64,000 nucleotides of DNA, from the IMG/VR virus record IMGVR_UViG_2671180890_000004. One strand, 5' to 3'. Positions 1-38,257 of the stretch are shown here, one piece after another. The position numbers were made by a program, and so were the translations under genes. The DNA is from a virus (lineage: Duplodnaviria > Heunggongvirae > Uroviricota > Caudoviricetes). Within the stretch, counting starts at the first letter, position 1. Every line of letters starts with the position of its first letter. The notes under the pieces are model-generated. The model was given only the letters and a program-made list of their open reading frames with translations. It was not told where the DNA came from and ran no database searches.

Positions 1-573
1 TTACATTTCAGGTTGCGTTATGACAGTCCCAACAGGGTGGTAGCGGTAGATCGTTGACAGTCCAATATCATAGATAATTGCCAGCCGCTTTCTGTCATAC
101 CCTTTCTGGAGCAATCTTGCGATCTGCTCATGCTGCTCCTTCGTCAGTTTCGGGCGACGTCCTCCAACTCTTCCTTGTGCTCGCGCAGCAGCCAGTCCTG
201 CCAGCGTGCGCTCAACTATCAGTTCACGCTCCATTTCTGCCAGTGCACCCATCATATGAAAAAAGAACCTTCCCATCGGAGTGCTGGTATCGATTGAATC
301 CGTCAGACTGCGAAAATTGACACCTTTTGCGCGTAGCTCTTCTGTGAGAGCAATGAGGTGTTTCATTCTTCTACCCAACCGATCCAGCTTCCAGACCACC
401 AATGTATCCCCTCTTTTAAGGCACTTTAAAGCGCGTTTCAGGCCTGGTCGTTCCGACTTGGTTCCGCTCATTTTGTCCTCAAAAATCTGTTCACATCCTG
501 CGCACATTAATGCATTGCGTTGCAAATCTGTGTTTTGGTCATTTGTTGACACACGTATGTAGCCAATCAGCAT
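1..573 (-). CDS. Serine DNA invertase, Gin/Pin/Cin/Hin family
   Basis: 190-aa product starting MLIGYIRVSTNDQNTDLQRNAL, with resolvase catalytic N-terminus and C-terminal HTH; start moved to internal Met with upstream AGGGAG RBS; adjacent to invertible tail-fibre region. Confidence 0.9.
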   Translation of the reverse strand: MLIGYIRVSTNDQNTDLQRNALMCAGCEQIFEDKMSGTKSERPGLKRALKCLKRGDTLVVWKLDRLGRRMKHLIALTEELRAKGVNFRSLTDSIDTSTPMGRFFFHMMGALAEMERELIVERTLAGLAAARAQGRVGGRRPKLTKEQHEQIARLLQKGYDRKRLAIIYDIGLSTIYRYHPVGTVITQPEM

Positions 574-635
574 TAAAAATACTCCCTTTTGAGTGGTTAA
601 AGTACTGAGATAATGTGGGGAGGATTTGAGAGATA

Positions 636-856
636 AACGTTGGTTTGGGGGAAGGCTCTGCACTGCCTGTTGGTGTGCCTGTTCCATGGCCCACCGCCAC
701 ACCGCCAGCAGGCTGGTTAAAGTGCGACGGGCGCGCCTTTACAAAAGAACAATATCCTGTTCTGGCCAGAGTCTACCCGACCCTCCGTCTTCCCGATTTG
801 CGCGGTGAGTTTATCCGTGGATGGGACGACGGGCGCAAAGTTGATACGGGGCGTTC
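636..856 (+). repeat. Crossover-region repeat copy A (about 220 bp), encodes conserved GEGSALPVGVPVPWPTATPPAGWLKCDGRAFTKEQYPVLARVYPTLRLPDLRGEFIRGWDDGRK segment
   Basis: Near-identical DNA recurs at about 1150-1366 (direct) and about 2530-2770 (inverted). Confidence 0.6.
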
Positions 857-1148
857 ATTGCTAAGTGGTCAGGCTGCAACATTTATTCGTACAGCTTTGC
901 AGGATTATTACGGTTACGATCTGAATACTAATGTCAAAGTAGGTATCGCTTTTGCTACTGCTGATTCTGTTATAACCGTTGGAAACCCAGCTAATCCTAA
1001 AGCAGGAAATAATAGCGATTATGTTCCTGCATCAGCAGATAACTCTATAACGGGTATTCAAAGGACAGCGGAGGATAATTTTACCGGGGCATGGATATCA
1101 ATGCGCCCCCGCAATGTTGCGTTTAATTACATCGTAAGGGCCGCATAA
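645..1148 (+). other. Promoterless alternative tail-fibre C-terminal cassette (167 codons, intact frame), silent in current orientation
   Basis: ORF begins inside repeat A and ends NYIVRAA like the other fibre C-termini; opposite strand to the fibre constant region. Confidence 0.6.
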
Positions 1149-1149
1149 A

Positions 1150-1366
1150 AACGTTGGTTTGGGGAAGGCTCTGCATTGCCTGTTGGTGTGCCTGTTCCGT
1201 GGCCCACCGCCACACCGCCAGCAGGCTGGTTACAGTGCAACGGAGCTACGTTCACCAAAGAACAATATCCTGTTCTGGCCAGAGTCTACCCGACCCTCCG
1301 TCTTCCCGATTTACGCGGTGAGTTTATCCGTGGATGGGACGACGGGCGCAAGATTGACGAGGGGCG
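1150..1366 (+). repeat. Crossover-region repeat copy B
   Basis: About 217 bp nearly identical to copy A, with one fewer G in the GGGGG run. Confidence 0.6.
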
Positions 1367-1630
1367 TAAGTTGCTTTCATGCAGAAAGGTACACTGGTCG
1401 GCGGTCATGACGATAACGATTCTTCGCTGGATATCTCGTACATGAGTAACGGAAATAATATTGACTATGGCGGCGATAAGGTGTTTGCGGGGAATTACCG
1501 TAGCGATTATTTGTGGTACGCAATTCTGGGTGGAACAAACAGTCGCGCAAAAGCCGAATTAAACGGAGCATTCTTTAACATAACCCGCCCCCGCAATATC
1601 GCGTTTAACTATATCGTGAGGGCGGCGTGA
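1176..1630 (+). pseudogene. Second alternative tail-fibre C-terminal cassette, split across two frames
   Basis: ORFs 1176-1445 and 1379-1630 overlap in different frames; the first carries the conserved crossover peptide, the second ends NYIVRAA; a one-base indel separates them. Confidence 0.5.
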
Positions 1631-1636
1631 TACCGT

Positions 1637-2251
1637 TCAGCTGGCAAGTGCCAGTGGCGCTTCCGGCCAGCTGATTTCAGGTGCCGTGCTGATATCCAGT
1701 GCGTTCAGCTCGTCGATATAATCCAGCACGGCGTTCAGTTTTGCCGTTTCTTCTGGTGTCAGACTGCGACCAGCACGCAGTTTGAGGTTGATAAGATCGA
1801 CGGACGCCATCGCCTGTTTCACCCGTTGCTGGCGTTGCTGTCTGGCAACCTCCAGTTCTGCGGCTCGCTGCCGTTCAGTATCGGTTACCCACGCCTCACC
1901 GTTCCAGGTATCCCATGGCGTGGCCGGCTGTTTTGTGGTGGTGTCCGCCGGGTAATCACCCGGTTGGGTAATCAGAACGGGGTTACCGTTCTCCGTGCTG
2001 TATACCGTCTCGCCGCGGTGATCAGGCACATGCTCCCACCCGTTCAGCGTGGCAGTCCGGCAAACCACGTAACCCGAAATTGCCTCCGGCGGTGCATCGG
2101 CGCACGAATGTGCCGGAGTACCCACCCCAAGGGCGAGATACTCCACAGAGGATGAGGTGTATTCCCGGGTTTCCTCGTCATAGTGATATACAGTGATCTC
2201 GCCCGCTACAGTGGCGATACCGTTTTCATCCAGAACTGCAGTGTTACTCAT
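1637..2251 (-). CDS. Tail fibre assembly protein (Tfa/U-like chaperone)
   Basis: 204 aa directly downstream of the fibre C-terminus on the minus strand; C-terminal LDYIDELNALDISTAPEISWPEAP region typical of Tfa. Confidence 0.8.
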   Translation of the reverse strand: MSNTAVLDENGIATVAGEITVYHYDEETREYTSSSVEYLALGVGTPAHSCADAPPEAISGYVVCRTATLNGWEHVPDHRGETVYSTENGNPVLITQPGDYPADTTTKQPATPWDTWNGEAWVTDTERQRAAELEVARQQRQQRVKQAMASVDLINLKLRAGRSLTPEETAKLNAVLDYIDELNALDISTAPEISWPEAPLALAS

Positions 2252-2730
2252 TAAACTGCCCTCACAATGTAATTAAGTGCAATGCTACGGGGTCTGACAG
2301 TGATACCCTTCGCATACCCGCTTCTGATAGAGGTCAGAATAGTAGCCTGCATACCATTGTCTGACATTGCCACGACAGGATCGCTGAATGTTGTCCCGTC
2401 CGGCATTTTAAAGCTGCCCTCACGAAGGTCTGTAATGGAATCTTCATTGTTGAATCCCATGCCGACTATCCCGAGGTTCCCGTAGTGTCCTGGTTATAAT
2501 AATCCAGCATTGCTGTTCTTAACAGCGTTGCCCTTGTGCGGACAGCAACTTACGTCCTGTATCAACTTTGCGCCCGTCGTCCCATCCACGGATAAACTCA
2601 CCGCGTAAATCGGGAAGACGGAGGGTCGGGTAGACTCTGGCCAGAACAGGATATTGTTCTTTTGTAAAGCGCGCCCGTCGCACTTTAACCAGCCTGCTGG
2701 CGGTGTGGCGGTGGGCCACGGAACAGGCAC
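2251..2730 (-). pseudogene. Receptor-binding C-terminal part of the tail fibre in the currently expressed orientation, broken across three frames
   Basis: ORF track gives three overlapping minus-strand ORFs (2494-2730, 2519-2719, 2251-2460); relative to copy A the repeat here carries two single-base deletions. Confidence 0.55.
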
Positions 2731-2770
2731 ACCAACGGTAGCGCCGAGCCTTCTCCTAAACCAAGGTAAT
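2530..2770 (-). repeat. Crossover-region repeat copy C (inverted relative to A and B)
   Basis: Reverse complement matches copies A and B apart from two single-base deletions and a few substitutions. Confidence 0.6.
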
Positions 2771-4184
2771 TGAGGACATCTTTTATACTGCCCTTAGCGA
2801 TAATAGCGCGACCAATAGCTGTAAGGGTTGCCAGCGCTGCGCGGTCTGCTCCGGTAAAATAAGGCAACCGATCTGCTGCAGTGGCAAGTCCTGCCAGAGC
2901 AGTGAGCGTGGCATCTGCCGGTTGTTTTCCGTTTGCCAGATCGTATGCAGCCTTGACCGCTTTCGGTGTGGCGGCCAGTATTTCAGACGTGCTGTTGATG
3001 GCACTGCTCAATTGTATGGTGCCTTTTGCCGTCAGCGAGGCAGCAGGCACTCCCGTTATCTGACTCCACGGGTGAGTGTGGCTGACGGGCGCCTTGCCGG
3101 CTGCAAGGTCGTATGCAGCCTTGACCGCCTTCGGCGTGGCAGCCTCAGTTTCTGATTGACTGTCCGTGGCGCTGCTCAGTTGTACGGTGCCTTTTGCCGT
3201 CAGCGAGGCAGCAGGCACTCCCGTTATCTGACTCCACGGGTGAGTGTGGCTGACGGGGGCCTTGCCGGCAGCCAGGTCATATGCAGCCTTGACGGCCTTT
3301 GGTGTGGCGGCCAGCGTTTCAGAGGTGCTGTTGGTGGCACTGCTCAGTTGTACGATCCCTTTACGGGTCGTTGTTGCATCCTGGGCTGTGTATTTTCCCC
3401 GGGCCAGATCATACGCGATTTTCACAGCCTTCGGCGTGGCAGCCTCAGTTTCTGATTGACTGTCCGTGGCGCTGCTCAGTTGTACGGTGCCTTTTGCCGT
3501 CAGCGAGGCAGCAGGCACTCCCGTTATCTGACTCCACGGGTGAGTGTGGCTGACGGGGGCCTTGCCGGCAGCCAGGTCATATGCAGCCTTGACGGCCTTT
3601 GGTGTGGCGGCCAGCGTTTCAGAGGTGCTGTTGGTGGCACTGCTCAGTTGTACGATCCCTTTACGGGTCGTTGTTGCATCCTGGGCTGTGTATTTTCCCC
3701 GGGCCAGATCATACGCGATTTTCACAGCCTTCGGCGTGGCAGCCTCAGTTTCTGATTGACTGTCCGTGGCACTGCTCAGCTGTACGGTGCCTTTTGCCGT
3801 CAGCGAGGCAGCAGGCACTCCCGTTATCTGACTCCACGGGTGAGTGTGACTGACGGGTGCCTTGCCGGCTGCAAGGTCGTATGCAGCCTTGACGGCTTTT
3901 GGTGTGGCGGCCAGCGTTTCAGAGGTGCTGTTGGTGGCACTGCTCAGTTGGGTGAACCCCTTAGCTGTCAGTGTCGCGTCCGGGTGGTTACGGGAACGTA
4001 CGTGTTCAGCCAGTGACTGTGCGGCTTCCTCCGTTTTTTTCTTCAGCCATTTCGTCCTGTTTGCCAGTTGCCGGGGGGCTCGATTTGATATCCCGTCAGC
4101 ACCACCCAGAACCGGATCTGATGTCTCCAGTTGATAGATTTTTTCTTCCCACTTTTCTGTTTCATTCAGGTTTCCCATAATCAA
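2685..4184 (-). CDS. Tail fibre protein, constant N-terminal part with tandem fibre repeats; frame ends inside crossover repeat C
   Basis: 499 aa with reiterated SSATxSxSET-AATPKAVK-AYDLA-GK units; translation ends 8 codons after GEGSALP because of a frameshift. Confidence 0.8.
   Translation of the reverse strand: MIMGNLNETEKWEEKIYQLETSDPVLGGADGISNRAPRQLANRTKWLKKKTEEAAQSLAEHVRSRNHPDATLTAKGFTQLSSATNSTSETLAATPKAVKAAYDLAAGKAPVSHTHPWSQITGVPAASLTAKGTVQLSSATDSQSETEAATPKAVKIAYDLARGKYTAQDATTTRKGIVQLSSATNSTSETLAATPKAVKAAYDLAAGKAPVSHTHPWSQITGVPAASLTAKGTVQLSSATDSQSETEAATPKAVKIAYDLARGKYTAQDATTTRKGIVQLSSATNSTSETLAATPKAVKAAYDLAAGKAPVSHTHPWSQITGVPAASLTAKGTVQLSSATDSQSETEAATPKAVKAAYDLAAGKAPVSHTHPWSQITGVPAASLTAKGTIQLSSAINSTSEILAATPKAVKAAYDLANGKQPADATLTALAGLATAADRLPYFTGADRAALATLTAIGRAIIAKGSIKDVLNYLGLGEGSALPLVCLFRGPPPHRQQAG
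2900..3960 (-). repeat. Tandem 300-bp coding repeats in tail fibre gene
   Basis: Antisense ORFs 3156-3455 and 3456-3755 have identical 99-aa translations, so the units are perfect copies; diverged copies flank them. Confidence 0.8.
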
Positions 4185-4771
4185 CTGCTCCCGTGGTTAT
4201 AACTGCCATCATGGATGGCGGTATTGTTATAGCGAATGGCCACAGACTGATACTCCAGGCTGGCCAGATGGCAGCGGGCCGGTGCAAATGCAGCGAGCGT
4301 CTGACGCAGCATCGCGGCCTGATCGTTAGTAATGGGCTGTTTCAGAATAACGCGATAAACCGCCCAGGCGGCTGCATCTCCATGAACAAACAGTCCGTTA
4401 TAGCTGCGATTGCCGTCGTAACTGAGACGACCTGTGCCTTCAATCAGATCCACTTCACCAAAGCCAAAACGGCGGATAACTTCCCGGATTGACCACGGCG
4501 TCCCTTTATACCGGTGTAGTTCGATGGCTGCTTTTATAAGCATGCGGCGAACATCGTCCGATTCCGCCAGCTCCCAGCCATCGCCAGACAGTGAGAACTG
4601 CTCGCCCAGCCATGGCAGCGCAGAACTGTCGACGATATCGACGAGAAAGACCATCAGTACGCTCAGGTCGATGTTATCCAGCCGCCCTGCCAGTCTTCCC
4701 AGCGTCCTGAGACTGATATCACCCTCAAGCGGTGGCGGGAGTTGTAATGGCTCAGTCATCAGACACTCCAC
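4181..4771 (-). CDS. Tail/baseplate protein (P2 gpI-like)
   Basis: 196 aa between baseplate J-like gene and tail fibre gene; size and position match gpI-type proteins. Confidence 0.6.
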   Translation of the reverse strand: MECLMTEPLQLPPPLEGDISLRTLGRLAGRLDNIDLSVLMVFLVDIVDSSALPWLGEQFSLSGDGWELAESDDVRRMLIKAAIELHRYKGTPWSIREVIRRFGFGEVDLIEGTGRLSYDGNRSYNGLFVHGDAAAWAVYRVILKQPITNDQAAMLRQTLAAFAPARCHLASLEYQSVAIRYNNTAIHDGSYNHGSS

Positions 4772-5855
4772 TCATGTTAAGTGTGATCGCCGTACAGTTT
4801 GCCCATTCGTTTTCTGCCACCACCCTCAGTGCCGGTGTCACCAGTTCAACCTGGTACACCCCGGAAACGGACAATGCACTGATAATCTGGCTGGGGACAA
4901 TATCACGCCCCAGCGTGGCGGCACGTGATGCCACCCAGTTCTGTATGGCGCTGTTAGCGGCATCTTTTACAGACCTGGCATCCTGATCACGATAGATCGT
5001 AATCCTGGCTTCAATGGTGTAATCCACCTTCACTGGTGTTTTAGCCCGCACTGTATCAGTGAGTGGCCTGACTTTCTCATCAGAGCAGAAACTCTCTACC
5101 AGCGTGAGAACACCGCCGTCCGGCAGACCGGTACTGAGCAGCGGATACAGATCTACGGTCCCGGGAACCGGGGAAAGCACAGCAACATCGACAATGTTGG
5201 GATGGGCCTGCATGGCATGAAAGCGGTATGCGCCACGGCTTCCGGCATTGGTGAATGACTCCGGGGCCAGCCTGATACGCTCCCGGAGCCTGTCATCGTC
5301 TTCCTGTTCTGAACCGCCGGAACTGGCCGTCAGATTGCTCACCAGCAGGTCGACGTTATCAATCTCATCGAGTAACTGACTGACCTGCGCAGGTTGCCAG
5401 CCGTTACCAGCGGTACCGGGTTCGGTACAGGTGGACGTGACATTGACCAGCAGCAATCCGGCCTTCAGTACCACATCTGTATCGGTGGCAAAAATAACGC
5501 TGTCGGAAGCGCTGACGCGGGTGCCTGCCGGGATCAGCACATCAATGGTCAGTGCCTCATCCACAGAGAACTGAAGTGTGGTGGTGGCAGGCTGCGCGGC
5601 AAGGCGGTATACACCAACCAGTTCTCCGAGGTAATCAATCATCGGCTCTCGTGAAAAGGCGACCAGATTCTGCTTTGCTGCCTCCTGTACCGCAACCCTG
5701 ACCAGCATTTCGCGATAGGCCCACAGATCAATCAGCAGACGTTCTGCCTGTGCCGGGTACAGCGTTTTGCCGGTATCCGCTTCATACTTCGCAATCATTT
5801 CTGCCGTGATTTTGTCGGCATCGCGTTCAATAAAATCGGGTTCTGTCAGCGCCAT
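4752..5855 (-). CDS. Baseplate protein J-like
   Basis: 367 aa, position after gpW-like gene, conserved baseplate gene order. Confidence 0.8.
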   Translation of the reverse strand: MALTEPDFIERDADKITAEMIAKYEADTGKTLYPAQAERLLIDLWAYREMLVRVAVQEAAKQNLVAFSREPMIDYLGELVGVYRLAAQPATTTLQFSVDEALTIDVLIPAGTRVSASDSVIFATDTDVVLKAGLLLVNVTSTCTEPGTAGNGWQPAQVSQLLDEIDNVDLLVSNLTASSGGSEQEDDDRLRERIRLAPESFTNAGSRGAYRFHAMQAHPNIVDVAVLSPVPGTVDLYPLLSTGLPDGGVLTLVESFCSDEKVRPLTDTVRAKTPVKVDYTIEARITIYRDQDARSVKDAANSAIQNWVASRAATLGRDIVPSQIISALSVSGVYQVELVTPALRVVAENEWANCTAITLNMSGVSDD

Positions 5856-6193
5856 AGCAACTCCTGAGTCCGGGTCTGTCCGTCTGAGCCTTTCCAGCTC
5901 ACCCGGAGCGTAAGATGTTCGCCGTCGACGGCGGGTTTAACTGACATAAGCTGGCAGCGGGGCTCCCAGCGTCGGATGGCATCGACGGATTCGCGCACCA
6001 CATGCGGAATGGCCCGGTCTACAGGCCAGTCGATATAAAGATGCAGATTGCTGCCGAACTCCGGGCGATGCGGGTCGCTGCCGCGGGGAGTCCGCAGGAT
6101 AATTTGAATCGCCTGCCGGATATCATCCAGCCCCCGGACAATTTCGCCGGGAGCCTGCAGGGTCGGTTGCCAGAATACTGAGGTTGTTTTCAT
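5846..6193 (-). CDS. Baseplate wedge protein (gpW/gp25-like)
   Basis: 115 aa, size and order between V-like and J-like genes. Confidence 0.75.
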   Translation of the reverse strand: MKTTSVFWQPTLQAPGEIVRGLDDIRQAIQIILRTPRGSDPHRPEFGSNLHLYIDWPVDRAIPHVVRESVDAIRRWEPRCQLMSVKPAVDGEHLTLRVSWKGSDGQTRTQELLWR

Positions 6194-6247
6194 GGGGGCA
6201 GTATTGCCCCCGTGCGGGAACGCTGATATTAAAGGCGTTTAAAAAGC

Positions 6248-6844
6248 TCAGTGGGAGTGGTGGCTGGAGTTTTCGCCATCAGACAACATACTGCCCGTGG
6301 CATGGGCATTCCCTTTAATCTCGATATTGCCATGGATGGTCGCGGTAACACCTTCACCACCAGAACCCGCCATGCCTCCTTCGTAAATCAGCTTACCCCT
6401 GACACGCAGATCTCCGGTAAGTTCGGTTTCCGGTGCGTCAATCGTGGCTTTCTGTGTTTTCAATACCACATCAGCACCACACTCAATGACAATATGCTCA
6501 ATGCCGCCCCGGATGATCAGAGTGTGCGTCTTCCGGTTGTAGCTGTACTCTGCACCATCAGCAAACCGGGTTCCCCGGATATTTTTGTCACTGAACGGTG
6601 GTTTATCGACGTCTGAATACACCGCGCCCAGAATAACACCATCCTCGCCGTTGGCATCGAGCAGCACCTCAACCTGCTCCCCCACGTCAGGGAGCCAGTA
6701 ATCTTTGTTATCCTGGGTATTGCGCTGCAGCACGTTAAGCCAGTTTGTGCGCAGGTTATCGCATTCAGGCAGACGAACGCGGGCCTGAACCCTGTCGGCA
6801 TCAACGGCACTGACCGTACCGACCTGACGAGTGACACCAGTCAT
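6248..6844 (-). CDS. Baseplate spike/assembly protein V-like
   Basis: 198 aa, Gly-rich C-terminus, position in baseplate cluster. Confidence 0.7.
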   Translation of the reverse strand: MTGVTRQVGTVSAVDADRVQARVRLPECDNLRTNWLNVLQRNTQDNKDYWLPDVGEQVEVLLDANGEDGVILGAVYSDVDKPPFSDKNIRGTRFADGAEYSYNRKTHTLIIRGGIEHIVIECGADVVLKTQKATIDAPETELTGDLRVRGKLIYEGGMAGSGGEGVTATIHGNIEIKGNAHATGSMLSDGENSSHHSH

Positions 6845-8013
6845 TTTTTCTTCTCTCTTATTACTGTGGACGTGCTGCCGTCCGGTTTATAGATGGTCAG
6901 CATCCGGGTTTTGCCGATTTTTTTACCTTTCTTCGCCTTGCCCTGTGTGATCGGCCCCCGTGCCACTTCCAGCTCTGTGGTGTAGCCGCTGTTACGGTCA
7001 AACGCATGGCGGGCAGTGGTTATGAGCCATGGCCCGGATAACTGCCCAAAACCCACCAGTTCAATTTTGTTGCCTGCTGTCAGTTGAGGTGTTCCCGTCA
7101 GCGTCAGGGAGCCGTTCTGCTGGTATTCGTTATGTCTGGCCAGTGCTGAATCCGCTTTAATCCGGGCACTGTCCGGGTCGCTGACGCGGCTGTTAACTTT
7201 AAGTGAGTCAGCGCTGGTAACCTTACCACCTTTGAGCTTTTTGTCGCTTTCACGGGTACCACCATCAGCTTCGTAGACGATCAGTTTTTTACTGCTGCTT
7301 TTCTGGTGTTTTACCTTTGCAGATTTATAGACCCGGTTGATGGTGTCACGCAGGGAAAAGCGGGCCACATCCTGCGGTTTTAACTGCCTGACCGGCTCCT
7401 GACTGCGCAGTGTGGCCAGATGAGAAAAAATCAGCTGGTCACTGACCACTTTCACTGCATAACCATACTCGCTGGCCAGCCGGCGCAGAAAACCCACGTC
7501 GGTTTCAGCATACTGGGTCACCCGGTCGATTCTGATGGACTCAATGCTGCCCACCAGTTTCAGCCGGTGCTTTCTGGCAATCCGCCCCGCAACAGCTGCC
7601 AGCGTGGTGTTCTCAAAACCACGACTGGTTTTAGTCCGCAGGGCACTGTTAACCGAGGTGGCCACCCCACGGATAGAAACAACGGAAGCGGGCGAACTCA
7701 CTTCGATCTCGTCTATAGAGAACGTACCGCAGGACAGCAGCTTCTCGTCCTGATAGCCCATTTTCAGCGTCAGCGTGTCACCCTTGCCCGGATACCACTT
7801 ATCCAGCCAGCGGCCATCGGTGTCGTCCAGCTCCACCTCAATGGTATCGGACTCATTTTTGATGTTATCGCTCCAGGTCACACGGGTGACATAAGGCGCG
7901 ATATCAGAGGTGATGTTTTTCTGCAGATACCACAGAGTGAACACCGGTGTCAGCACATCGCTGACGCCGGTTAACGCTGATGTGACTTGCGCAGTGCTGT
8001 TTATCTCAGCCAT
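6841..8013 (-). CDS. Tail protein D (late control D family)
   Basis: 390 aa, size and position downstream of X/U-like genes. Confidence 0.7.
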   Translation of the reverse strand: MAEINSTAQVTSALTGVSDVLTPVFTLWYLQKNITSDIAPYVTRVTWSDNIKNESDTIEVELDDTDGRWLDKWYPGKGDTLTLKMGYQDEKLLSCGTFSIDEIEVSSPASVVSIRGVATSVNSALRTKTSRGFENTTLAAVAGRIARKHRLKLVGSIESIRIDRVTQYAETDVGFLRRLASEYGYAVKVVSDQLIFSHLATLRSQEPVRQLKPQDVARFSLRDTINRVYKSAKVKHQKSSSKKLIVYEADGGTRESDKKLKGGKVTSADSLKVNSRVSDPDSARIKADSALARHNEYQQNGSLTLTGTPQLTAGNKIELVGFGQLSGPWLITTARHAFDRNSGYTTELEVARGPITQGKAKKGKKIGKTRMLTIYKPDGSTSTVIREKKK

Positions 8014-29287: not shown

Positions 29288-29333
29288 AGATTTTGAGTCT
29301 TTGTAAAAGGTTATCACATATCGCAAAAGAGGT

Positions 29334-29648: not shown

Positions 29649-29658
29649 GGAGTAATAA

Positions 29659-30570: not shown

Positions 30571-30573
30571 CCA

Positions 30574-32343
30574 ATGAATGCTGCCCTGACTGAACGACTG
30601 GTTTATGTCGCCCGCGCGGCACGTGACGCGGGGCATGGTAAACGCGGCGCAGTATACGACGCTGCCTGTGCTGAACTTGGCATGTCCCGCGCCACTCTGC
30701 TGCGCAGGCTGAAGGAGGTATCTGTGACTGATAAACGCAAAAAACGCGCCGATGCCGGGCGCAGCGCCCTGACCCGCGACGAAGCCGCGCTGATATCTGC
30801 CACACTGCGTGAGGCCACCCGCAAGAACGGTAAGCGTCTCTATTCCATCGCGGATGCAGTGGAAACCCTGCGGGCTAACGGCTTTATATCCGCAGGCAGA
30901 ACAGATGAAACCACCGGTGAGTTTTTCCCGTTGTCCGAAGATGCCATCAGCCGAGCCCTGCGTAACTATGGCCTGCACCCGGAACAACTGGATGCCCCTG
31001 CGCCGCATACCGAAGTGGCCAGTCTGCATCCCAATCATGTCTGGCAGATTGACGCCTCACTCTGCACGCTTTACTACCTGAGCAATGGACATAAAGGGCT
31101 GCAGGTGATGGACAGCGCGAAGTTCTACAAGAACAAGCCCGCTAACCTTGCCCGTATCGCCAGTGACCGCGTGTGGAGTTACGAGATTACCGACCATGCC
31201 AGCGGCTGGATTTACGTTGAGTATGTGACGGGCGCGGAATCAGGTGAGAACCTGTGTTCTGTGCTTATCAACGCCATGCAGGAGCGTGGCGGCGCAGACG
31301 TGCTGCACGGTGTGCCGAAAATACTCTATCTCGACCCCGGCTCGGCAAACACCGCGGGTATGACGAAAAACATGTGCCGCTCACTGGGCATCGACCTGAT
31401 AGCGCACAAGCCGCATAACGCCCGCGCCACCGGACAGGTGGAAAAGGCGCGGGACATTATCGAACGCAAGCTGGAGCCGGGTCTGAAGTTCCGGCCGGTT
31501 CACAGTCTGGAAGAACTCAACGCGCTGGCCGCGAAATGGCGCAGCCACTTTAACGCCACGGCTGTTCACAGCCGCCACGGTAAAACCCGCACGGATATCT
31601 GGCTGAAGATTACTGCTGAGCAGCTGAAAAAAGCGCCTTCCGTTGAGGTATGTCGTGAACTGGCTGTGGCGGCACCAGAACTCCGCAAAGTCACGCCAAA
31701 ACTTCGTGTCTCGTTCCGGGGCACTGAATTTGACGTATCAACGGTACCGGGCGTACTGGTTGGTGAAAAACTGATGATTACCCGTAACCCGTGGCGCAGC
31801 GATGTGGCACAGGTGGTTCTGACCGGTGAGGACGGCCACGAGACGTTCTTCCTGGTCGAAGAGGTCAGAAAGAACGAGTTTGGCTTTGCTGAAGGCGCGG
31901 CGGTATTTGGCGAAAGTTACAAAGCCCTGCCGGAAACCCCGGCGCAGATGGCGGCAAAAGAAACCGAAGCGCTGGTCACCGGTACAGACAACGCCGCAGA
32001 TGCAGCTGCCGCACGCAAGGCGAAGGCGCTGCCGTTCGGCGGGCGGCTTGACCCGTATAAACATATCGACGACACCACACTTCCGGCCTATATGCCGAAG
32101 CGTGGTCAGGCCTCTGACGTACGCGGGCCGCGCACTGAACAACGTCCCATGACTTATGTGGAGGCCGCGAAAGCCCTGCGCGATAAGTTCAGCGCCAACG
32201 GCTTTACCTGGACGCCGGAACATTACCGCCAGTTAACGGCACAGTATCCGGACGGCGTACCGGAAGCCGCACTGGATGAAGTCATGGCCACGCTGACCAC
32301 GCCGGCCCGCAGCAGCGTTATCAGTATTGTTAACGGCAACTGA
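30574..32343 (+). CDS. DDE transposase (phage transposase A analogue, integrase-core type)
   Basis: 589 aa with candidate DDE residues in HVWQIDAS and LYLDPGSANT; followed by AAA+ B-like gene. Confidence 0.8.
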   Translation: MNAALTERLVYVARAARDAGHGKRGAVYDAACAELGMSRATLLRRLKEVSVTDKRKKRADAGRSALTRDEAALISATLREATRKNGKRLYSIADAVETLRANGFISAGRTDETTGEFFPLSEDAISRALRNYGLHPEQLDAPAPHTEVASLHPNHVWQIDASLCTLYYLSNGHKGLQVMDSAKFYKNKPANLARIASDRVWSYEITDHASGWIYVEYVTGAESGENLCSVLINAMQERGGADVLHGVPKILYLDPGSANTAGMTKNMCRSLGIDLIAHKPHNARATGQVEKARDIIERKLEPGLKFRPVHSLEELNALAAKWRSHFNATAVHSRHGKTRTDIWLKITAEQLKKAPSVEVCRELAVAAPELRKVTPKLRVSFRGTEFDVSTVPGVLVGEKLMITRNPWRSDVAQVVLTGEDGHETFFLVEEVRKNEFGFAEGAAVFGESYKALPETPAQMAAKETEALVTGTDNAADAAAARKAKALPFGGRLDPYKHIDDTTLPAYMPKRGQASDVRGPRTEQRPMTYVEAAKALRDKFSANGFTWTPEHYRQLTAQYPDGVPEAALDEVMATLTTPARSSVISIVNGN

Positions 32344-32353
32344 GGAGGGAAAC

Positions 32354-33520
32354 ATGCTGGTACTGAAGCAGCAACTGAAAGAAGCCCGTATTCCACAGGC
32401 GGTGGTGGCGAGAGCTGTCGATGTTTCTGAGGCCACGCTGGCCCAGATTGTGAATCATAACGCGTGGCCCCGCACCAGCCCCGGAGAAGTGCGCCGGCGT
32501 CTTGCGTCCTGGCTGGAAAGTCAGGGGATTGATACAACGAAGAGTTTTGATGCTGTACAGGGCGCGGCCACGCCCCGTACAGCGGGTACCACAGATAAAA
32601 CGAGCCTCAGTGAGGAAGAGAATATGTTACTCAAAAAACAGGTGTTATTTCCAGCAACCAAAAAAGCGTTTGGTCTTTTCCGTGACCCGTTCGCCGACGA
32701 AGCCATGCAGGGTTCTGATGATGTGTTCACCACCCCGGATATTCGCTACGTGCGTGAGGCGTTGTACCAGACAGCCCGTCATGGTGGGTTTATGGCCGTC
32801 ATCGGTGAGTCCGGTGCGGGTAAATCCACGCTGCGCCGCGACCTGACTGAACGTATCAACCGCGAGAATGCGCCGGTAATTGTTATCGAGCCATACATCA
32901 TCGCTATGGAAGACAACGATGTGAAAGGGAAAACCCTGAAGGCAGCAGCGATTGCCGAAGCCATTATCAGTACCATCGCACCACTGGAAAGCATCAGACG
33001 CAGTCAGGACGCCCGCTTTCGCCAGTTGCATCGCGTCCTGAAAGACAGCAGCCAGGCGGGGTTCAGCCACGTTCTGGTGATTGAGGAGGCCCACAGTCTG
33101 CCCATTCCGACACTGAAACACCTCAAACGCTTTTTTGAGCTGGAGTCCGGTTTCAAAAAACTGCTGTCCATCGTGCTGATTGGCCAGCCGGAACTGGCGA
33201 CAAAACTGTCTGAACGCAATATGGAAGTCCGTGAAGTCGTTCAGCGCTGTGAGGTGGTCGAACTTCTGCCTCTGGACAATAACCTTGAAGAGTTTCTGAC
33301 GTTCAAACTGCAACGGGCCGGTAAACAACTGACGGACATTATGGACGCCAGCGCAGTGGATGCCATACGTGCCCGCCTGAGCAATCCGGGAAGTCATCGT
33401 AAAAATATGGTCAGCCTGCTGTATCCGCTGGCCGTCAGTAACCTGGTAATAGCCGCCATGAATCTGGCCGCTGAAATCGGGGTTCCACAGGTCAACGCTG
33501 ACGTTGTCAAAGGGGTTTAA
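32354..33520 (+). CDS. Transposition ATPase (MuB/IstB-like AAA+ with N-terminal HTH)
   Basis: Walker A AVIGESGAGKST; start set at Met after GAGGAGGG RBS. Confidence 0.75.
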   Translation: MLVLKQQLKEARIPQAVVARAVDVSEATLAQIVNHNAWPRTSPGEVRRRLASWLESQGIDTTKSFDAVQGAATPRTAGTTDKTSLSEEENMLLKKQVLFPATKKAFGLFRDPFADEAMQGSDDVFTTPDIRYVREALYQTARHGGFMAVIGESGAGKSTLRRDLTERINRENAPVIVIEPYIIAMEDNDVKGKTLKAAAIAEAIISTIAPLESIRRSQDARFRQLHRVLKDSSQAGFSHVLVIEEAHSLPIPTLKHLKRFFELESGFKKLLSIVLIGQPELATKLSERNMEVREVVQRCEVVELLPLDNNLEEFLTFKLQRAGKQLTDIMDASAVDAIRARLSNPGSHRKNMVSLLYPLAVSNLVIAAMNLAAEIGVPQVNADVVKGV

Positions 33521-33522
33521 TA

Positions 33523-33792
33523 ATGAAATCCACCACAGGTATCAACCAGCAAATCAGCAAAGTGCAGTCAGCCATTATGGCGCTTAAGGCGACGAACACG
33601 GATGTACAAAGCATCACCATCAGGGGTAACAAACCTGTCATCCGCGTTTCCCGGAGTGCGCATTGCATGCGCATGCTTGAGCAGGGAAAGGCCTGTTATC
33701 TGTATACCGGTCATGACCACAGGGGACATTTCCGTCAGGGCGTTTTCGAACTGCACGGCTGTCGCGTCGTGTGGCCGGAATCTTTGTGGTAA
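33523..33792 (+). CDS. Hypothetical 89-aa early protein
   Basis: ORF between B-like and Gam-like genes. Confidence 0.4.
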   Translation: MKSTTGINQQISKVQSAIMALKATNTDVQSITIRGNKPVIRVSRSAHCMRMLEQGKACYLYTGHDHRGHFRQGVFELHGCRVVWPESLW

Positions 33793-33819
33793 TCAGCACA
33801 ACAGGAGGAGTCATAAAAT

Positions 33820-34350
33820 ATGGCAAAAAGTACAAAAGGGGCAAAACGTATCAAAGCCGCAGCAGCACTCTGGGTGCCGGGGACACGCGAAGAGGTCATT
33901 GAGGGAATCAGACTGCTTGGTGACGCGCAACGTGAACTGGTCAGGGCTGAAACAGAAATGAATGACACCATTGGCGACATCACCGCACGTTATGCCCCGC
34001 TCACCGAGAGCCTGAAAAAACGCATGGCCGAACTGCAGTCCGGTATTCAGACATGGTGTGAGGCACACCGTGATGAACTGACCGGCAACGGGAAGGTGAA
34101 GTTCGCTAACCTCACCACCGGCGAGGTGCAGTGGCGAAACCGTCCGCCGTCAGTCAGTATCCGTGGGGCGGATAATGTTATTGAATTACTGAGACGTCTG
34201 GGGCTTGAGCGCTTTATCCGTGTAAAGGAGGAAATAAATAAAGACGCCATCCTGAATGAAAAGGACGCCGTGAAAAATATTCCCGGTATTACCATAAAAA
34301 GTGATATTGAGGATTTTTCAATAATTCCTTTTGAGCAGAATGTGCAGTAA
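33820..34350 (+). CDS. gam: Gam-like host-nuclease inhibitor (DNA end-binding)
   Basis: 176 aa, size and position as Mu Gam. Confidence 0.65.
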   Translation: MAKSTKGAKRIKAAAALWVPGTREEVIEGIRLLGDAQRELVRAETEMNDTIGDITARYAPLTESLKKRMAELQSGIQTWCEAHRDELTGNGKVKFANLTTGEVQWRNRPPSVSIRGADNVIELLRRLGLERFIRVKEEINKDAILNEKDAVKNIPGITIKSDIEDFSIIPFEQNVQ

Positions 34351-34446
34351 AAACAGCATATAAGCTATTTAAAACAGCCTTTTCTTTTTTATTCCGGCAT
34401 CAGCGCCGTGGGCTTCTGCACGCCGGAAACAGAGGAGAATTAAATC

Positions 34447-34641
34447 ATGATATTTAAATGTATTCAGTGCGAGAGGGATATAACAGCCCTGCGTTTTCAC
34501 AGCGCCATCGCCGTGATGTCCGGTAAGTACCACGTACCTGCAGTACGCGTCACCCTGGTCTGTCCGTACTGCAGTCAGCATTTTTCGGCAGACGTGCCCG
34601 TCATGGAATTCTCCCGCCCTGACAGGGAGGACTCGCAATGA
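34447..34641 (+). CDS. Small zinc-ribbon-like protein
   Basis: 64 aa with CxxC...CPYC cysteine pairs. Confidence 0.4.
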   Translation: MIFKCIQCERDITALRFHSAIAVMSGKYHVPAVRVTLVCPYCSQHFSADVPVMEFSRPDREDSQ

Positions 34642-34910
34642 TTACCCCACAGGAAGCACGACAGCGCACCCGAACCCTTGTTGAACACTATGTCAACGAG
34701 TGTGAATGCCGCGACCTCACCGATGTGAAGCACGTCCTGACGGCGCTAATCAGCATGACCGCTCAGGCCATTGTGGCGACCAACGGAAAGGCGGCTGCCC
34801 TGCAGGTACTGGTGAACACACTCACCCACACGGCAGAGCACGATGTGCCGTACCGGATGGAAACCACTGCAGAAGGCGGCCTGAACATCACCGTCGACCG
34901 GAAACACTGA
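34638..34910 (+). CDS. Hypothetical 90-aa early protein
   Basis: ORF, start overlaps previous stop. Confidence 0.4.
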   Translation: MITPQEARQRTRTLVEHYVNECECRDLTDVKHVLTALISMTAQAIVATNGKAAALQVLVNTLTHTAEHDVPYRMETTAEGGLNITVDRKH

Positions 34911-34919
34911 GGGCGCGGC

Positions 34920-35225
34920 ATGACACGGAACACCGAACTCACCCGCACCGCCCTCTACCGTCTGGCCCTGCAGCGTTTCGGGCCGGACGCACAGGCCCTG
35001 AAACTGACAGAAGAGGCCGCTGAACTGGCGGCCAGTGCCGCCCGCAACCTGAACGGACAGGGCAGCGAAAGTGACCTCGCGGCAGAGCTGGCAGACGTGG
35101 AAATCATGACAGAGCAGCTGCGCCTTCAGGGAATGGACCGGCTGATTGACTTCCACAAACAGAAAAAACTGGAACGCCTTGCCGCACGGCTGGGCGTCAT
35201 GTACACCGGAGATACTGAACAATGA
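34920..35225 (+). CDS. MazG-like nucleotide pyrophosphohydrolase domain protein
   Basis: 101 aa with acidic EEAAELAASAARN...AAELADVEIM helices typical of small MazG-like enzymes. Confidence 0.55.
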   Translation: MTRNTELTRTALYRLALQRFGPDAQALKLTEEAAELAASAARNLNGQGSESDLAAELADVEIMTEQLRLQGMDRLIDFHKQKKLERLAARLGVMYTGDTEQ

Positions 35226-35905
35226 CAGACCAGGATAAACACATTGAGAAACTGAAAAAGTTGCTGGCGCTGGCCGCATCCGGCAACCCTCACGAGGCCG
35301 CTCTGGCACTGCGCCGTGCCCGTAAACTGATGGATGTTCACGGCATCACACATTCCGACATCGCCATGAGTGATATTGATGAAACCATCAGTCACTACTG
35401 GCCGACAGGCAGCCTCCGTCCACCGCGCTACATGCTGGGCCTGATGAACATCATCCGCGAGGCATTTGGTGTTAACTCCATCATTCACCCCGGCACATAT
35501 CCGGGTGTGGGGTTCTACGGCAACCGGGAACGGGCTGCACTGGCTGCGTACACCTGGGAAGTGCTGGCCCGCCAGCTGAAAAAGGCGCGTCAGCAATATA
35601 TCAGCGCACAGAACAAAAGAATAAAAACTGCCACCCGTACCAGCCGTGGTGACCAGTTTGCTGAAGGCTGGGTGCTGGCCGTTATCAGTGAAATACAGTC
35701 CTTCGCCCTGACCGATGACGAACGTGAACTGATGCAGCAGTGGCTGGAACATAAATACCCGCAGACGCAAACCACCAGGGCGCGTAAACCGGGAAGAAGC
35801 CGCAATGGCGACGCCTCGCGCTATGCGGGGTTTCTTGAAGGGCAGAACGTCAGACTGCACCGCCCGGTCAGTGGGCAGGAACAACAGAAACTGGAGGCCA
35901 GATGA
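35222..35905 (+). CDS. Hypothetical early protein
   Basis: 227 aa, N-terminal KLKKLLALAASGNPHEAALALRRARKLM helix pair. Confidence 0.4.
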   Translation: MTDQDKHIEKLKKLLALAASGNPHEAALALRRARKLMDVHGITHSDIAMSDIDETISHYWPTGSLRPPRYMLGLMNIIREAFGVNSIIHPGTYPGVGFYGNRERAALAAYTWEVLARQLKKARQQYISAQNKRIKTATRTSRGDQFAEGWVLAVISEIQSFALTDDERELMQQWLEHKYPQTQTTRARKPGRSRNGDASRYAGFLEGQNVRLHRPVSGQEQQKLEAR

Positions 35906-36132
35906 TTACGCTATCAGGTAAAAGCCGGAAATTAAAAGCCTGCCGAATATCTGCCAGATACCTTTTTGCCCGCGCCTTTTTTAAGAACGTCAGGCCGGGG
36001 ATCACAATTGGTGTTATTGCCGGACGCGAACAGGTTGAAAAATACATGTCAGGTGCATGGTGGAATAACGACCCTGTCATTGCTGCCCGTAATATTCATA
36101 TCAGTTGGGGGGATATTCAGAATGACGGCTGA
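35902..36132 (+). CDS. Hypothetical 76-aa protein
   Basis: ORF only. Confidence 0.3.
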   Translation: MITLSGKSRKLKACRISARYLFARAFFKNVRPGITIGVIAGREQVEKYMSGAWWNNDPVIAARNIHISWGDIQNDG

Positions 36133-36337
36133 ATCTGTTGTATGTGCCCTGTTCTGGTATTGTTTTGTCGGTTGGTGTACTGCTGAACTGCACCGCCGTT
36201 CAGGGTTTTATTCACGTTACAGTGGTGCTGGCTACTGGATTAGCTGGTCGGTGATGTTCCTGTGCTGGCCTGTGGCGCTTCCTTTATATGTCGATTATAT
36301 CGGTGGCGCAGGTAAAAGGAGCAACGATGATGACTAA
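36122..36337 (+). CDS. Small membrane protein
   Basis: 71 aa with two hydrophobic segments. Confidence 0.35.
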   Translation: MTAESVVCALFWYCFVGWCTAELHRRSGFYSRYSGAGYWISWSVMFLCWPVALPLYVDYIGGAGKRSNDDD

Positions 36338-36779
36338 ACAACGTCTTATCCAGCTCATTCATATTGCCCGTAATGAACTGGGTATGGATGAAGACACCTA
36401 CCGCCAGATGTTACAGGGGCTGACCGGTAAAGCCTCAACCAAAGGAATGGATACCACACAACTAAACTGCGTGCTGGAATCCATGAAAAGGAAAGGCTTT
36501 CGCGTTAAGCCTGCCGGAAAAGCCAGCTCCGGTTTACCGCTGGATAACCATCCGCAGTCCAGGAAAATCCGTGCGCTATGGCTTGAAATGGCTGCTGCCG
36601 GCATTGTTCGTGACCGTTCAGAAAATGCATTAGCGCGGTGGATCAAGCGGGAAACGGGCATCAGCGCCCTGCGCTGGCTCAGTACTGAACAGGCAAGCAG
36701 TGTTATTGAGAAACTGAAGAAGTGGCAGCGCAGAGCTGCGGGAGTCAAACATGAGCGACCTGAATCAGTTTCGAAGTAA
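36327..36779 (+). CDS. GemA/gp16-like protein
   Basis: About 150 aa immediately upstream of Mor-like gene. Confidence 0.55.
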   Translation: MMTKQRLIQLIHIARNELGMDEDTYRQMLQGLTGKASTKGMDTTQLNCVLESMKRKGFRVKPAGKASSGLPLDNHPQSRKIRALWLEMAAAGIVRDRSENALARWIKRETGISALRWLSTEQASSVIEKLKKWQRRAAGVKHERPESVSK

Positions 36780-37149
36780 AGGGCCGGAACTCCTGGTGGA
36801 GCTGGCACAGCATACCTCTGAGACCGTTCGCGAGATTATTGATATTGAGCCCGCAATTGCCGACCAGATTGGTCAGGCCGTCGCGAACCGAATGATGCAG
36901 GTCTGGGGCGGGCAAAACGTTTATTTCCCGATGGGCATGGTATGGAAGGTCAGTCAGCGCGACCGGGAAATCTTCAGGGAGTTTAACGGACGCAACCACC
37001 ACGAACTGGCCCGCAAGTTTGGTGTTTCGCTTCAGTGGGTCTACAGCGTGGTTAAGCGGGTCAGAAAAGAAGAACTGGATCGGATGCAGGGCAGGTTGTT
37101 TGATGAAGATCTGCCAGAGGAGACGAAAGACGTTAACAAATCCAGATAA
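36751..37149 (+). CDS. mor: Mor/C-family transcription activator
   Basis: 132 aa, C-terminal HTH HELARKFGVSLQWVYSVVKR; last gene of early operon. Confidence 0.7.
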   Translation: MSDLNQFRSKGPELLVELAQHTSETVREIIDIEPAIADQIGQAVANRMMQVWGGQNVYFPMGMVWKVSQRDREIFREFNGRNHHELARKFGVSLQWVYSVVKRVRKEELDRMQGRLFDEDLPEETKDVNKSR

Positions 37150-37189
37150 TTCCTGCTTGTTAAAGTCCTTTCAAAAATCTCCTTATTGT

Positions 37190-37230
37190 ATAAAAGCACG
37201 GTAGACCCCTTACCGTGCTTTTTTTATGCT
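37190..37230 (+). terminator. Rho-independent terminator after Mor-like gene
   Basis: Hairpin AAAGCACGGTAG...TACCGTGCTTT followed by T-run. Confidence 0.6.
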
Positions 37231-37263
37231 CTCTCTTTAGTATTCAGGATGCAGGGAGAAAAT

Positions 37264-37896
37264 ATGTTTGACGTTTCGTTGTTAAATCTGCCATGGGCAA
37301 CACTGGTGACCCTGACCAGTGGCTATATTGGGTATTTTATTGCGAATGTGGGACTGAAGGATCACCACAAGCCCATTGAGGTGACTTTTTCTTCGCTGAT
37401 TTTTGGCCTGACAGCAATGATGGCTTACCAGGCTGTTATGTGGGCAGGTCTGAATGCCTGGCTGGCAACACCACCAGCACTTCTGTGTGCCCTTACATGC
37501 GGTGCGTGGTGGCGCAGGTACGGTCGCAAATGGATGTACAGATTACTGTGGAATAATGATATTTCATGGTCTGACGATACCAGCTCAGCATGGCAGGCAA
37601 TGTTTGATCAAACAGGCTTCAGCGTTACCGAGGTCAGAGTGATTCTTCGCGATGGTTCCGGTATGATGTCACGGCTGCCAGGGAACTTTGAAGAGTGGCC
37701 TAACGGTCCGTTTACCCTGGGGAATAAAGGCGATATGGTTCTTTACGTCACGCACAGCAGCCCTTCAGGCAGTAACGAATGGGAAGAGTATAAAGGCGTG
37801 GTTGATAAGTACTGGGGAGCTCTGGCAACCTATATTCCAGCAGATCAGATTGCCAGAGTGGAGATCAGGCGCGTTCGTGCAACGAACGATGAATGA
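37264..37896 (+). CDS. Membrane protein with two to three N-terminal TM helices and about 110-aa soluble C-terminal domain
   Basis: Start chosen at ATG after AGGGAG RBS; last gene before the prophage terminus. Confidence 0.5.
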   Translation: MFDVSLLNLPWATLVTLTSGYIGYFIANVGLKDHHKPIEVTFSSLIFGLTAMMAYQAVMWAGLNAWLATPPALLCALTCGAWWRRYGRKWMYRLLWNNDISWSDDTSSAWQAMFDQTGFSVTEVRVILRDGSGMMSRLPGNFEEWPNGPFTLGNKGDMVLYVTHSSPSGSNEWEEYKGVVDKYWGALATYIPADQIARVEIRRVRATNDE

Positions 37897-38199
37897 TGTT
37901 TATTTTTTCCCTGGGGCAGGGGCTGCCGGCATAGTGGTTTTATTGGCAGAGGAAGACGATTCTCCTTTTCTACCGGAATCGCGCTCGAACGTCACGATGT
38001 GCTTGCTTTTGGGCTTTTCTGAGTAATCCAGGCTATCATGCTTATTGTTTTGAGTAGTCATTGGAATCATCCTTTTTGTTGCGGGTCATGTTTCAGCAAA
38101 CTCGATTCTAAGTTGCCAGGAAGGATGATTTCAATGCCCGACTTATCTATCGTATAGCGGAAAAGAATTTCAGTTCTGTTCACCAGAACCCATGTTAAC

Positions 38200-38257
38200 C
38201 CACTCCAATTCGTTATTTATCTCACGGATCCCCCTTCATTTATCTCATGTCTGATCA
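38200..38257. repeat. Prophage terminal region with two TTATTTATCTCA repeats ending CA at the host junction
   Basis: Repeats about 25 bp apart next to the junction; on the other strand the terminus begins TG, as for Mu-type ends. Confidence 0.45.

Follow-up and report, generated by a model that had tools for sequence, protein, structure and literature searches.

A BcepMu-type transposable prophage in Escherichia coli gabP with the divergent arms that are normal for its family

How should a Mu-related prophage be understood whose late and early genes run away from each other? The stretch of DNA analyzed here (64,000 nucleotides, hereafter the window) carries at positions 1-38257 a transposable prophage that is inserted in gabP of E. 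coli, in which the minus strand carries the genes for lysis, head, tail and invertase and the plus strand the early operon, while the repressor lies together with an accessory block between the two arms. A preliminary description, which had read this arrangement correctly, considered either a natural BcepMu-like organization or an internal inversion, and contrasted the element with Mu. The contrast is genuine, as seven late-arm proteins match Mu on the opposite strand, whereas Gam, GemA and Mor match on the same strand. Nevertheless, the gabP element is an ordinary BcepMu-type transposable prophage, and its divergent arms are the normal, published layout of the family; both the layout and the phage type are already known. 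We regard it as very nearly certain that the window holds what appears to be an intact lysogen of a BcepMu-type transposable myovirus of enterobacteria, and that this phage entered gabP by transposition.

The late arm extends from the holin gene (25769-26119) down to the invertase gene (1-573), and comprises in this order holin, endolysin, spanin, terminase, portal, head, sheath, tube, tape measure, baseplate, tail fibre and invertase. That all late genes lie on the minus strand, as had been stated, is nearly right, the exception being two alternative tail-fibre cassettes on the plus strand (645-1630). The lysis cassette with two small genes (23755-26119, minus strand; tblastn to BcepMu gp21-gp26 and annotation) encodes, besides the holin, an SLT endolysin (25029-25766), an Rz-like spanin (24389-25000), a membrane protein and a gp26-like protein. 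The Mu-type head and packaging module (15373-23758, minus strand) consists of genes for gp37, gp36, a DUF2190 protein, the major head protein, protease/scaffold, G, F, portal, TerL and TerS, and matches BcepMu gp27-gp37 in tblastn at 44-62% identity. The P2-like contractile tail module (4181-15376, minus strand) comprises gpI, gpJ, gpW, gpV, gpD, gpX, gpU, tape measure, chaperone, tube and sheath; tblastn to BcepMu gp38-gp51 (31-76% identity, order kept) and annotation agree on it, and its tape measure gene (9097-12309) contains a 261-bp sequence in three tandem copies. A P2-type contractile tail is thus joined to a Mu-type head and terminase, as is seen from the ordered matches to BcepMu gp27-gp52 and from TerL and F, which also match Mu (49% and 48% identity, respectively).

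The outermost late gene encodes a Gin-type serine DNA invertase (1-573, minus strand; Pfam Resolvase, 8e-51, and HTH_7; 76% identical to Mu Gin), which corresponds to positions 7616-8188 of L001, a prophage with 99.95% identity. Its stop codon lies at window position 1, and the window edge cuts off the end of the element. Next to it, inverted repeats and a gix match define an invertible tail-fibre region (628-2776) with three gix-like crossover sites, of which site A (2751-2776) agrees with Mu gix at 17 of 26 positions, and sites B (about 628-653) and C (about 1141-1166) are oppositely oriented. The cassettes are B (645-1148, plus strand), C (1158-1630, plus strand) and the expressed cassette A (2251-2750, minus strand), and the repeats at 669-862 and 1182-1378 are 92-97% complementary to 2541-2736. 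As the arrangement of this region varies among the prophages L001, L006, L007 and L008, the system has an invertase beside fibre cassettes, inverted gix-like sites and orientations that differ between genomes, and thus belongs to the Gin/Cin/Pin/Min type. The region contains a single tail-fibre assembly (chaperone) gene (1637-2251, minus strand), which is an intact reading frame and is identified by the RefSeq annotation of an identical gene. The tail-fibre gene itself (2251-4179, minus strand) contains a 300-bp tandem repeat (3127-3950), and the N-terminus of its product is 49% identical to BcepMu gp52.

The center (26250-29118) is formed by an accessory block and the minus-strand repressor gene. 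The block (26250-28543) comprises three genes of PHROG families of unknown function (26250-26993, plus; 26969-27373, minus; 27372-27587, plus) and an orphan Dam-type methylase gene (27779-28543, plus strand; Pfam MethyltransfD12, 6e-29). By tblastn, no BcepMu counterpart of this block was found, and a PADLOC scan of the accessory genes for defence systems returned nothing but the orphan methylase. The repressor (28660-29118, minus strand; Cro/CI-type HTH, Pfam HTH_3) is 36% identical to its homologue BcepMu gp17. Its translation probably begins at the ATG at 28998, because the longer form overlaps the promoter, and the L008 annotation likewise gives the shorter form. The candidate early promoter in question (TTGACT-17-CATAAT; 29023-29051, plus strand) agrees with the consensus at 10 of 12 positions and precedes the first early gene by 45 bp, but it is to be taken as a consensus match only, promoter-like sites in this region being no more numerous than expected by chance.

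The early arm reads on the plus strand from a small HTH gene at 29099 through transposase, ATPase, Gam and GemA to Mor, and is followed by two small accessory genes. Its first part (29099-30570) encodes a 62-aa HTH protein that is a homologue of BcepMu gp16, a winged-HTH regulator (29340-29648; gp12 homologue) and a DUF3102 protein (29659-30570; gp10 homologue). The first of these had been called Ner-like, which suits its position, but the protein belongs to no Pfam family and has no tblastn match in Mu. The DDE (rve) transposase (30574-32343; Pfam rve) is of the BcepMu/B3 type, within the Tn552/IS1604-related kind, and is 68% identical to BcepMu gp09 across 581 aa and 57% identical to the B3 transposase. 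Directly downstream lies the gene of an ExeA-like AAA+ transposition ATPase (32354-33520; Pfam AAA_22, 4e-20; 59% identical to BcepMu gp08), which is the functional counterpart of MuB; searches of solved structures with transposase and ATPase gave marginal, uninformative matches only. Small early genes follow (33523-36337), among them those for Gam (33820-34350; Pfam Phage_Mu_Gam, 8e-41), which shares 62% identity with Mu Gam and has no counterpart in BcepMu, and for a DUF2786/DUF7168 protein (35222-35905). GemA (36330-36779; Pfam 1e-40; 45% identical to BcepMu gp02) and the Mor-family late activator (36751-37149; Pfam 1e-43; 56% identical to gp01) are the last conserved genes of the arm. The two accessory genes at the right end (37264-38061; 37264-37896, plus, and 37900-38061, minus) belong to PHROG families of unknown function and were without match in Pfam and PADLOC searches.

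The right, Mor-side end of the prophage lies exactly at 38257, where ...TGTCTGATCA is followed by ggaatg of gabP. The termini are of the TG...CA type, each with two 9-bp GNGATAAAT motifs 23 bp apart. At the right terminus (38215-38257, minus strand, ending in CA-3'), two GAGATAAAT motifs occupy positions 12-20 and 35-43 from the end and are presumed transposase-binding sites. L001 shows this geometry at the other end as well, and BcepMu has it at both of its termini. Imperfect terminal repeats of BcepMu-like phages have been described (PMC2920897). The other prophage end, which the preliminary description had proposed to find, lies outside the window, 78 bp to the left of its start, as judged from L001; the left-end sequence was taken from this prophage, whereas the right end was read in the window itself.

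As the window starts 78 bp inside the left end, the target duplication in gabP is not visible. It is predicted to be GGAATG, so that TGATGCGCC... of the prophage end, GGAATG and the rest of gabP would lie to the left of the window. Near-identical copies occupy unrelated chromosomal sites, and those in upaG, phnP, a yfc fimbrial gene and yhfW are flanked by the 6-bp duplications CCAATA, GCGAGG, CATCCC and GGATAT, respectively. The duplication is thus 6 bp in all four complete copies, and not 5 bp as had been expected; 5 bp is the length known for Mu. With gabP, of which one junction is in the window, five different insertion sites are seen. For the gabP copy, with its one visible junction, a simple insertion is presumed. 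None of 5,426 complete E. coli genomes has this gabP insertion, and the left junction can therefore not be recovered from them. On the host side, the 5' fragment of gabP that was cut by the insertion (38258-38631, minus strand; codons 1-124 at 38260-38631) matches positions 1-124 of the 466-position NCBIfam GABA permease profile (2e-80), and gabT, gabD, lhgO and glaH/csiD follow. A search for tRNA genes across the window found none, and there is thus no tRNA-linked integration.

Which known phages does this element resemble? Escherichia phage PhiKM (PQ738613; 96.5% DNA identity, the record being a partial, permuted assembly) and the Klebsiella phage KP12 clone (OM835952; 85%) are essentially the same phage, with the same gene order including the invertase and the divergent arms. 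Relative to these and to the BcepMu-like prophages of E. coli ST131 and other Enterobacterales, which belong to the same group, the gabP site is private to this genome, and the state of the invertible region and some accessory genes differ. Bcepmuvirus prophages have been reported in E. coli ST131 (bioRxiv 10.1101/2022.05.07.487787), and SalMu of S. Typhi has been named a BcepMu relative (PMC3417384). With BcepMu (NC_005882; genus Bcepmuvirus) and phiE255, the element shares divergent clusters with control at the interface, the rve transposase and ExeA-like ATPase, an early arm with GemA and Mor at its outer end, a lysis cassette of holin, SLT endolysin and Rz, the Mu-type head and terminase with a P2-type contractile tail, and TG...CA ends with motif pairs at 12 and 35. 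It differs from BcepMu in that protein identity is only 30-76%, without megablast match. The E. coli phage possesses in addition a Gin-type invertase along with three fibre cassettes, whereas an inversion system is absent from BcepMu (PMC2771037), and further a Gam of Mu type, a Dam methylase and accessory genes of its own in the center and at the right end; it lacks the acyltransferase gp53 and gp03-gp07. The features of BcepMu-like phages in the broad sense, i.e. transposase, ATPase, divergent clusters, ends, tail and head, and many sites with a short duplication, are all present. As regards the strict ICTV genus Bcepmuvirus, BcepMu gives no megablast match and proteins of 30-76% identity, yet PhiKM is filed in this genus in GenBank. 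Pseudomonas phage B3 (Beetrevirus) has a homologous early arm (HTH, regulator, DUF3102, transposase, ATPase ... GemA, Mor), but its tail module is of the non-contractile siphovirus kind and an invertase is absent, whereas the element described here has a tail sheath and a P2-type baseplate and is therefore not a Beetrevirus.

Could the divergent layout be an inversion or an assembly error that is private to this copy of a Mu-like one-way genome? Compared with Mu, one arm is indeed turned around, and the wider family includes both layouts, as four distant relatives (L042, L044, L048 and L072) read in one direction; a BcepMu-type end motif was sought in these four and was not found. However, the same order is present in L001, which aligns in a single stretch of 35.7 kb, and in 611 of 5,426 complete E. 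coli genomes, counted where at least 80% of window positions 13400-38257 was found on one strand and in one place. In other species, 64 of 68 informative loci are divergent. With BcepMu, the prophage is collinear over its full length after reverse-complementing: 36 of the 54 prophage proteins match in tblastn without any change of order or relative orientation, the repressor and 28 late proteins being on one strand and 7 early proteins on the other. In the records of BcepMu and B3, genes 1-16 and 1-17, respectively, occupy the bottom strand, Mor being the leftmost, and repressor, lysis, head and tail genes are on top. Two divergent clusters with lysogeny control at their interface have been published for BcepMu (PMC2771037), and an early operon inverted relative to Mu for BcepMu and B3 (PMC2771037, PMC5977238), in case of B3 also relative to D3112 (PMC5977238). 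Moreover, the Mor-side end has a proper transposon terminus, which an internal inversion would not create. As the element is collinear with L001, PhiKM, KP12, BcepMu, B3 and the 611 genomes, none of which has the Mu-like order against which this copy alone would be inverted, we reject a private inversion or misassembly, which has a vanishingly small probability. The natural BcepMu-like organization is the alternative that stands.

Equally improbable is that the element belongs to the genus of Mu itself (Muvirus) and has rearranged its early arm. Like Mu, the element is a transposable temperate myovirus with TG...CA ends and an invertible fibre segment, it has homologues of Gam, GemA, Mor, TerL, portal, F, G and Gin, and the identities of Gam, Gin, TerL and F given above could speak for such an origin. 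However, Mu reads in one direction from its left-end repressor, and MuA, MuB, c and Ner have no detectable sequence similarity to the element; in tblastn, transposase, ATPase, repressor, first early gene, lysis genes and most head genes are without match in Mu, as are sheath, tube and baseplate apart from a weak match of gpJ. The close relation of the transposase to BcepMu gp09, the divergent arms and the 6-bp duplication also argue against Muvirus, and while Mu has the two activators Mor and C, one Mor-family gene was identified among the genes screened. As the proteins of transposition, regulation, lysis and tail thus lack Mu counterparts by tblastn, weak gpJ aside, this origin was rejected as well. 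More serious, but still rather unlikely, is that this copy is a dead, decaying prophage and not an inducible phage. The expressed fibre cassette has four frameshifts and cassette C has one, the fibre gene of L001 is likewise annotated as frameshifted, and this copy might therefore be without infectious particles. Yet all four changes in the expressed cassette are one-base homopolymer deletions with no substitution in 580 bp, a pattern that is the signature of consensus error where a culture holds mixed orientations. All other genes checked are intact reading frames, the intact cassette B could be switched in, and the absence of the gabP insertion from the complete genomes points to a recent event.

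For a BcepMu-type lysogen, homology and gene position suggest the following regulatory cascade. As in Mu, BcepMu and B3, the central repressor would silence the divergent early promoter. Upon induction, the early operon would be transcribed outward to the right end, yielding transposase and ATPase for replicative transposition, then Gam and GemA, and finally Mor. Mor may in turn activate leftward late transcripts in trans, from the lysis cassette via head and tail genes to the tail fibre, and its distance from the targets would be immaterial because it acts in trans. The invertase at the far left could flip the fibre cassettes and thereby alter the host range.

Two wider readings go beyond the gabP copy, and neither concerns anything unusual in it. 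It is conceivable, though we hold this only tentatively, that the enterobacterial lineage with its Gin switch, three cassettes and single chaperone on a BcepMu chassis is a genus-level group apart from Bcepmuvirus, and/or that the early and late arms have flipped relative to each other repeatedly and independently in the wider BcepMu/B3 transposase family. The four loci with one-way order lie scattered over the transposase tree, and the arms would in this case be freely re-orientable modules.

The correct label, a BcepMu-type transposable prophage and not a rearranged Mu, matters little beyond annotation, but searches for target duplications of this prophage should expect 6 bp. In this strain, the prophage inactivates gabP, a gene for GABA uptake. 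As about 11% of complete E. coli genomes, many ST131 isolates among them, contain this type of prophage, and as it inserts at random, it is a mutagen and a real source of strain-to-strain gene disruption, as seen for upaG, phnP, fimbrial genes and gabP.

The prophage (window positions 1-38257) consists of three blocks: an almost unbroken minus-strand block between 26119 and position 1, a mixed-strand block at 26250-29118, and a plus-strand block at 29099-37896. This layout had been outlined in the preliminary description and was borne out by our ORF map, by the RefSeq annotation of the 99.95% identical prophage copy L001 (NZ_CP147551) and our own check of 54 reading frames, which agree with each other, and by Pfam assignments. 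The latter place a Resolvase-type invertase at 1-573, a D12-class adenine methylase at 27779-28543, an HTH_3 repressor at 28660-29118 (minus strand), an rve transposase at 30574-32343, an AAA_22 ATPase at 32354-33520 and Mor at 36751-37149, and they also uphold the assignments of Mu Gam and GemA. The accessory genes of the prophage belong to PHROG families of unknown function, and no match to known defence systems was found among them.

Is such a divergent arrangement a natural, BcepMu-like organisation, or is it an inversion that is unique to this copy? In tblastn searches, 36 of the 54 prophage proteins had matches in BcepMu. All of these matches are on the opposite strand: those of the 28 late proteins and the repressor decrease strictly in position, starting at 32.9 kb and ending at 9.2 kb, and those of the seven early proteins extend between 8.9 kb and 0.4 kb. 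The reverse-complemented prophage is therefore collinear with BcepMu over the whole genome. The BcepMu record itself has Mor at the extreme left and genes 1-16 on the bottom strand, with the exception of gp14 on the top strand, whereas the repressor gp17 and the lysis through tail-fibre genes are all encoded by the top strand. In agreement with this, Lavigne et al. (2009; PMC2771037) described BcepMu as two clusters with the lysogeny control at the interface, and the arrangement of phage B3 is the same as that of the prophage. In case of Mu, the two arms differ in strand (tblastn): Gam, GemA and Mor match the same strand, seven late-arm proteins of the prophage the opposite one. This difference between the arms is the inversion that had been noticed initially. 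On these four lines of evidence, namely the BcepMu searches, the BcepMu record and literature, B3, and the comparison with Mu, the divergent layout is natural. The element and its architecture have already been described.

The distribution of the layout agrees with this. Of 5,426 complete E. coli genomes, 611 contain at least 80% of a 24.9-kb query that comprises late arm, centre and early arm (13400-38257), at one place and on a single strand. Gene order is also the same in phage PhiKM (96.5% identical, filed under Bcepmuvirus) and in the Klebsiella clone KP12 (85% identical). A cross-species scan with one genome per species yielded 80 loci in Enterobacterales, Burkholderiales, Neisseriales, Pseudomonadales and others; 64 of the 68 loci with late genes were divergent, including all enterobacterial relatives, and four were one-way. 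A unique inversion of this copy among otherwise collinear relatives is thus not what these genomes contain. The four one-way loci (L042, L044, L048 and L072) belong to distant relatives, with transposases of 54-68% identity, and three of them are metagenome bins. Their order is apparently Mu-like, as holin, TerS, TerL and portal come after Mor on the same strand. Their positions in a rough neighbour-joining tree of transposases are scattered, and their ends were not located by the BcepMu-type motif.

The prophage nevertheless differs from BcepMu in several components. Its Gin-type invertase (76% identical to Mu Gin), its Mu-type Gam (62% identical), its Dam methylase and its own central and right-end accessory genes have no BcepMu counterparts, and BcepMu has been stated to be devoid of a fibre inversion system (PMC2771037). 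The invertible region of the prophage (628-2776) contains three gix-like sites and encodes three alternative C-termini of the fibre, of which cassette A is expressed and cassettes B (645-1148) and C (1158-1630) are inverted, and its arrangement differs among L001 and three further E. coli copies (L006, L007 and L008). As there is only a single tail-fibre assembly (chaperone) gene in this region (1637-2251), neither cassette B nor cassette C would have a co-oriented chaperone when expressed. Compared with L007, the expressed cassette (2251-2750) lacks single bases at four places in homopolymer runs and is free of substitutions, and cassette C has one frameshift; judging from this pattern, the frameshifts most likely reflect consensus errors, not decay, in a mixed-orientation region. 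In-frame tandem repeats occur in the tail-fibre gene (3127-3950; 300 bp x 2.7, 98% identity) and in the tape-measure gene (9698-10493; 261 bp x 3, 96%), and the tape-measure protein varies in length among relatives (1070 aa in this prophage, 983 aa in L008, 821 aa in KP12).

How may such a back-to-back element be controlled? From the biology of Mu, BcepMu and B3, a divergent early promoter would be expected under the control of the central repressor. The best consensus candidate is the sigma-70-like TTGACT-17-CATAAT (29023-29051), which precedes the first early gene by 45 bp. With its start as annotated, at either TTG 29118 or GTG 29151, the repressor ORF extends over this candidate promoter and into that early gene, which argues for a true start at the ATG at 28998, as annotated in L008; this results in a 113-aa repressor and leaves a normal divergent control region. 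The early transcript would run outward to the right end with Mor as last gene, and diffusible Mor would then activate leftward late transcription beginning at the lysis cassette. As Mor would act in trans, the divergent geometry does not need any special mechanism. A strong, bidirectional terminator-like hairpin is positioned between the repressor and the Dam gene (28550-28574).

Besides its transposition machinery and back-to-back arms, the element has family-type termini, and copies of it are located at multiple insertion sites with 6-bp duplications. The right terminus is at 38257 (...TGTCTGATCA), beyond which the window and L001 diverge. The L001 element is 38,340 bp long, with 78 bp between its left end and the stop codon of the invertase; as this stop codon is at window position 1, the window lacks the last 78 bp of the prophage and the left junction. 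The first bases of each terminus are 5'-TGA, and positions 12-20 and 35-43 are occupied by G(A/C)GATAAAT, just as both ends of BcepMu carry G(A/C)GATA(A/T)(A/T)T at these positions. The motifs agree with the 23-bp repeats that have been described at the termini of BcepMu and phiE255 (PMC2920897).

The insertion into gabP, as initially proposed, is confirmed by its surroundings: when translated, 38258-38694 (minus strand) matches the GABA permease profile at positions 1-124 of 466, gabP being cut after codon 124 (fragment 38258-38631), and gabT, gabD, lhgO and glaH/csiD follow. The target duplication of Mu is 5 bp, and the same length had been anticipated here. However, four complete copies, located in upaG, phnP, a yfc fimbrial gene and yhfW, are each flanked by 6-bp direct repeats (CCAATA, GCGAGG, CATCCC and GGATAT), and the duplication expected in gabP is therefore GGAATG. 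The left junction is predicted to read ...GGAATG followed by TGATGCGCCGCGCGATAAATGC..., preceded by gabP codons 125 onwards (minus strand). The same gabP insertion was found in none of the 5,426 complete E. coli genomes, which suggests a private, presumably recent insertion, and the resulting GABA-permease mutation is probably peculiar to this strain. At the right end, the terminal ~145 bp (38104-38248) have an 89.7% match in unannotated DNA of some chromosomes and of plasmids of the APEC/ColV type; in the plasmid that we examined (L091, 4001-4144), IS1 and IS3 remnants adjoin, and the match therefore looks like the solo end of an eroded insertion.

Further downstream, the GC content is low (38-41%) at 44-50 kb, and two ORFs in this stretch (45040-46228) had no family match. 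Another prophage, lambdoid and unrelated to the first, starts at 46242 and continues to the window end (64000), with a tyrosine integrase (46242-47414, minus strand), a CI/Cro region near 51.5-52.5 kb, RusA, Q, a DNA methyltransferase and lysis genes.
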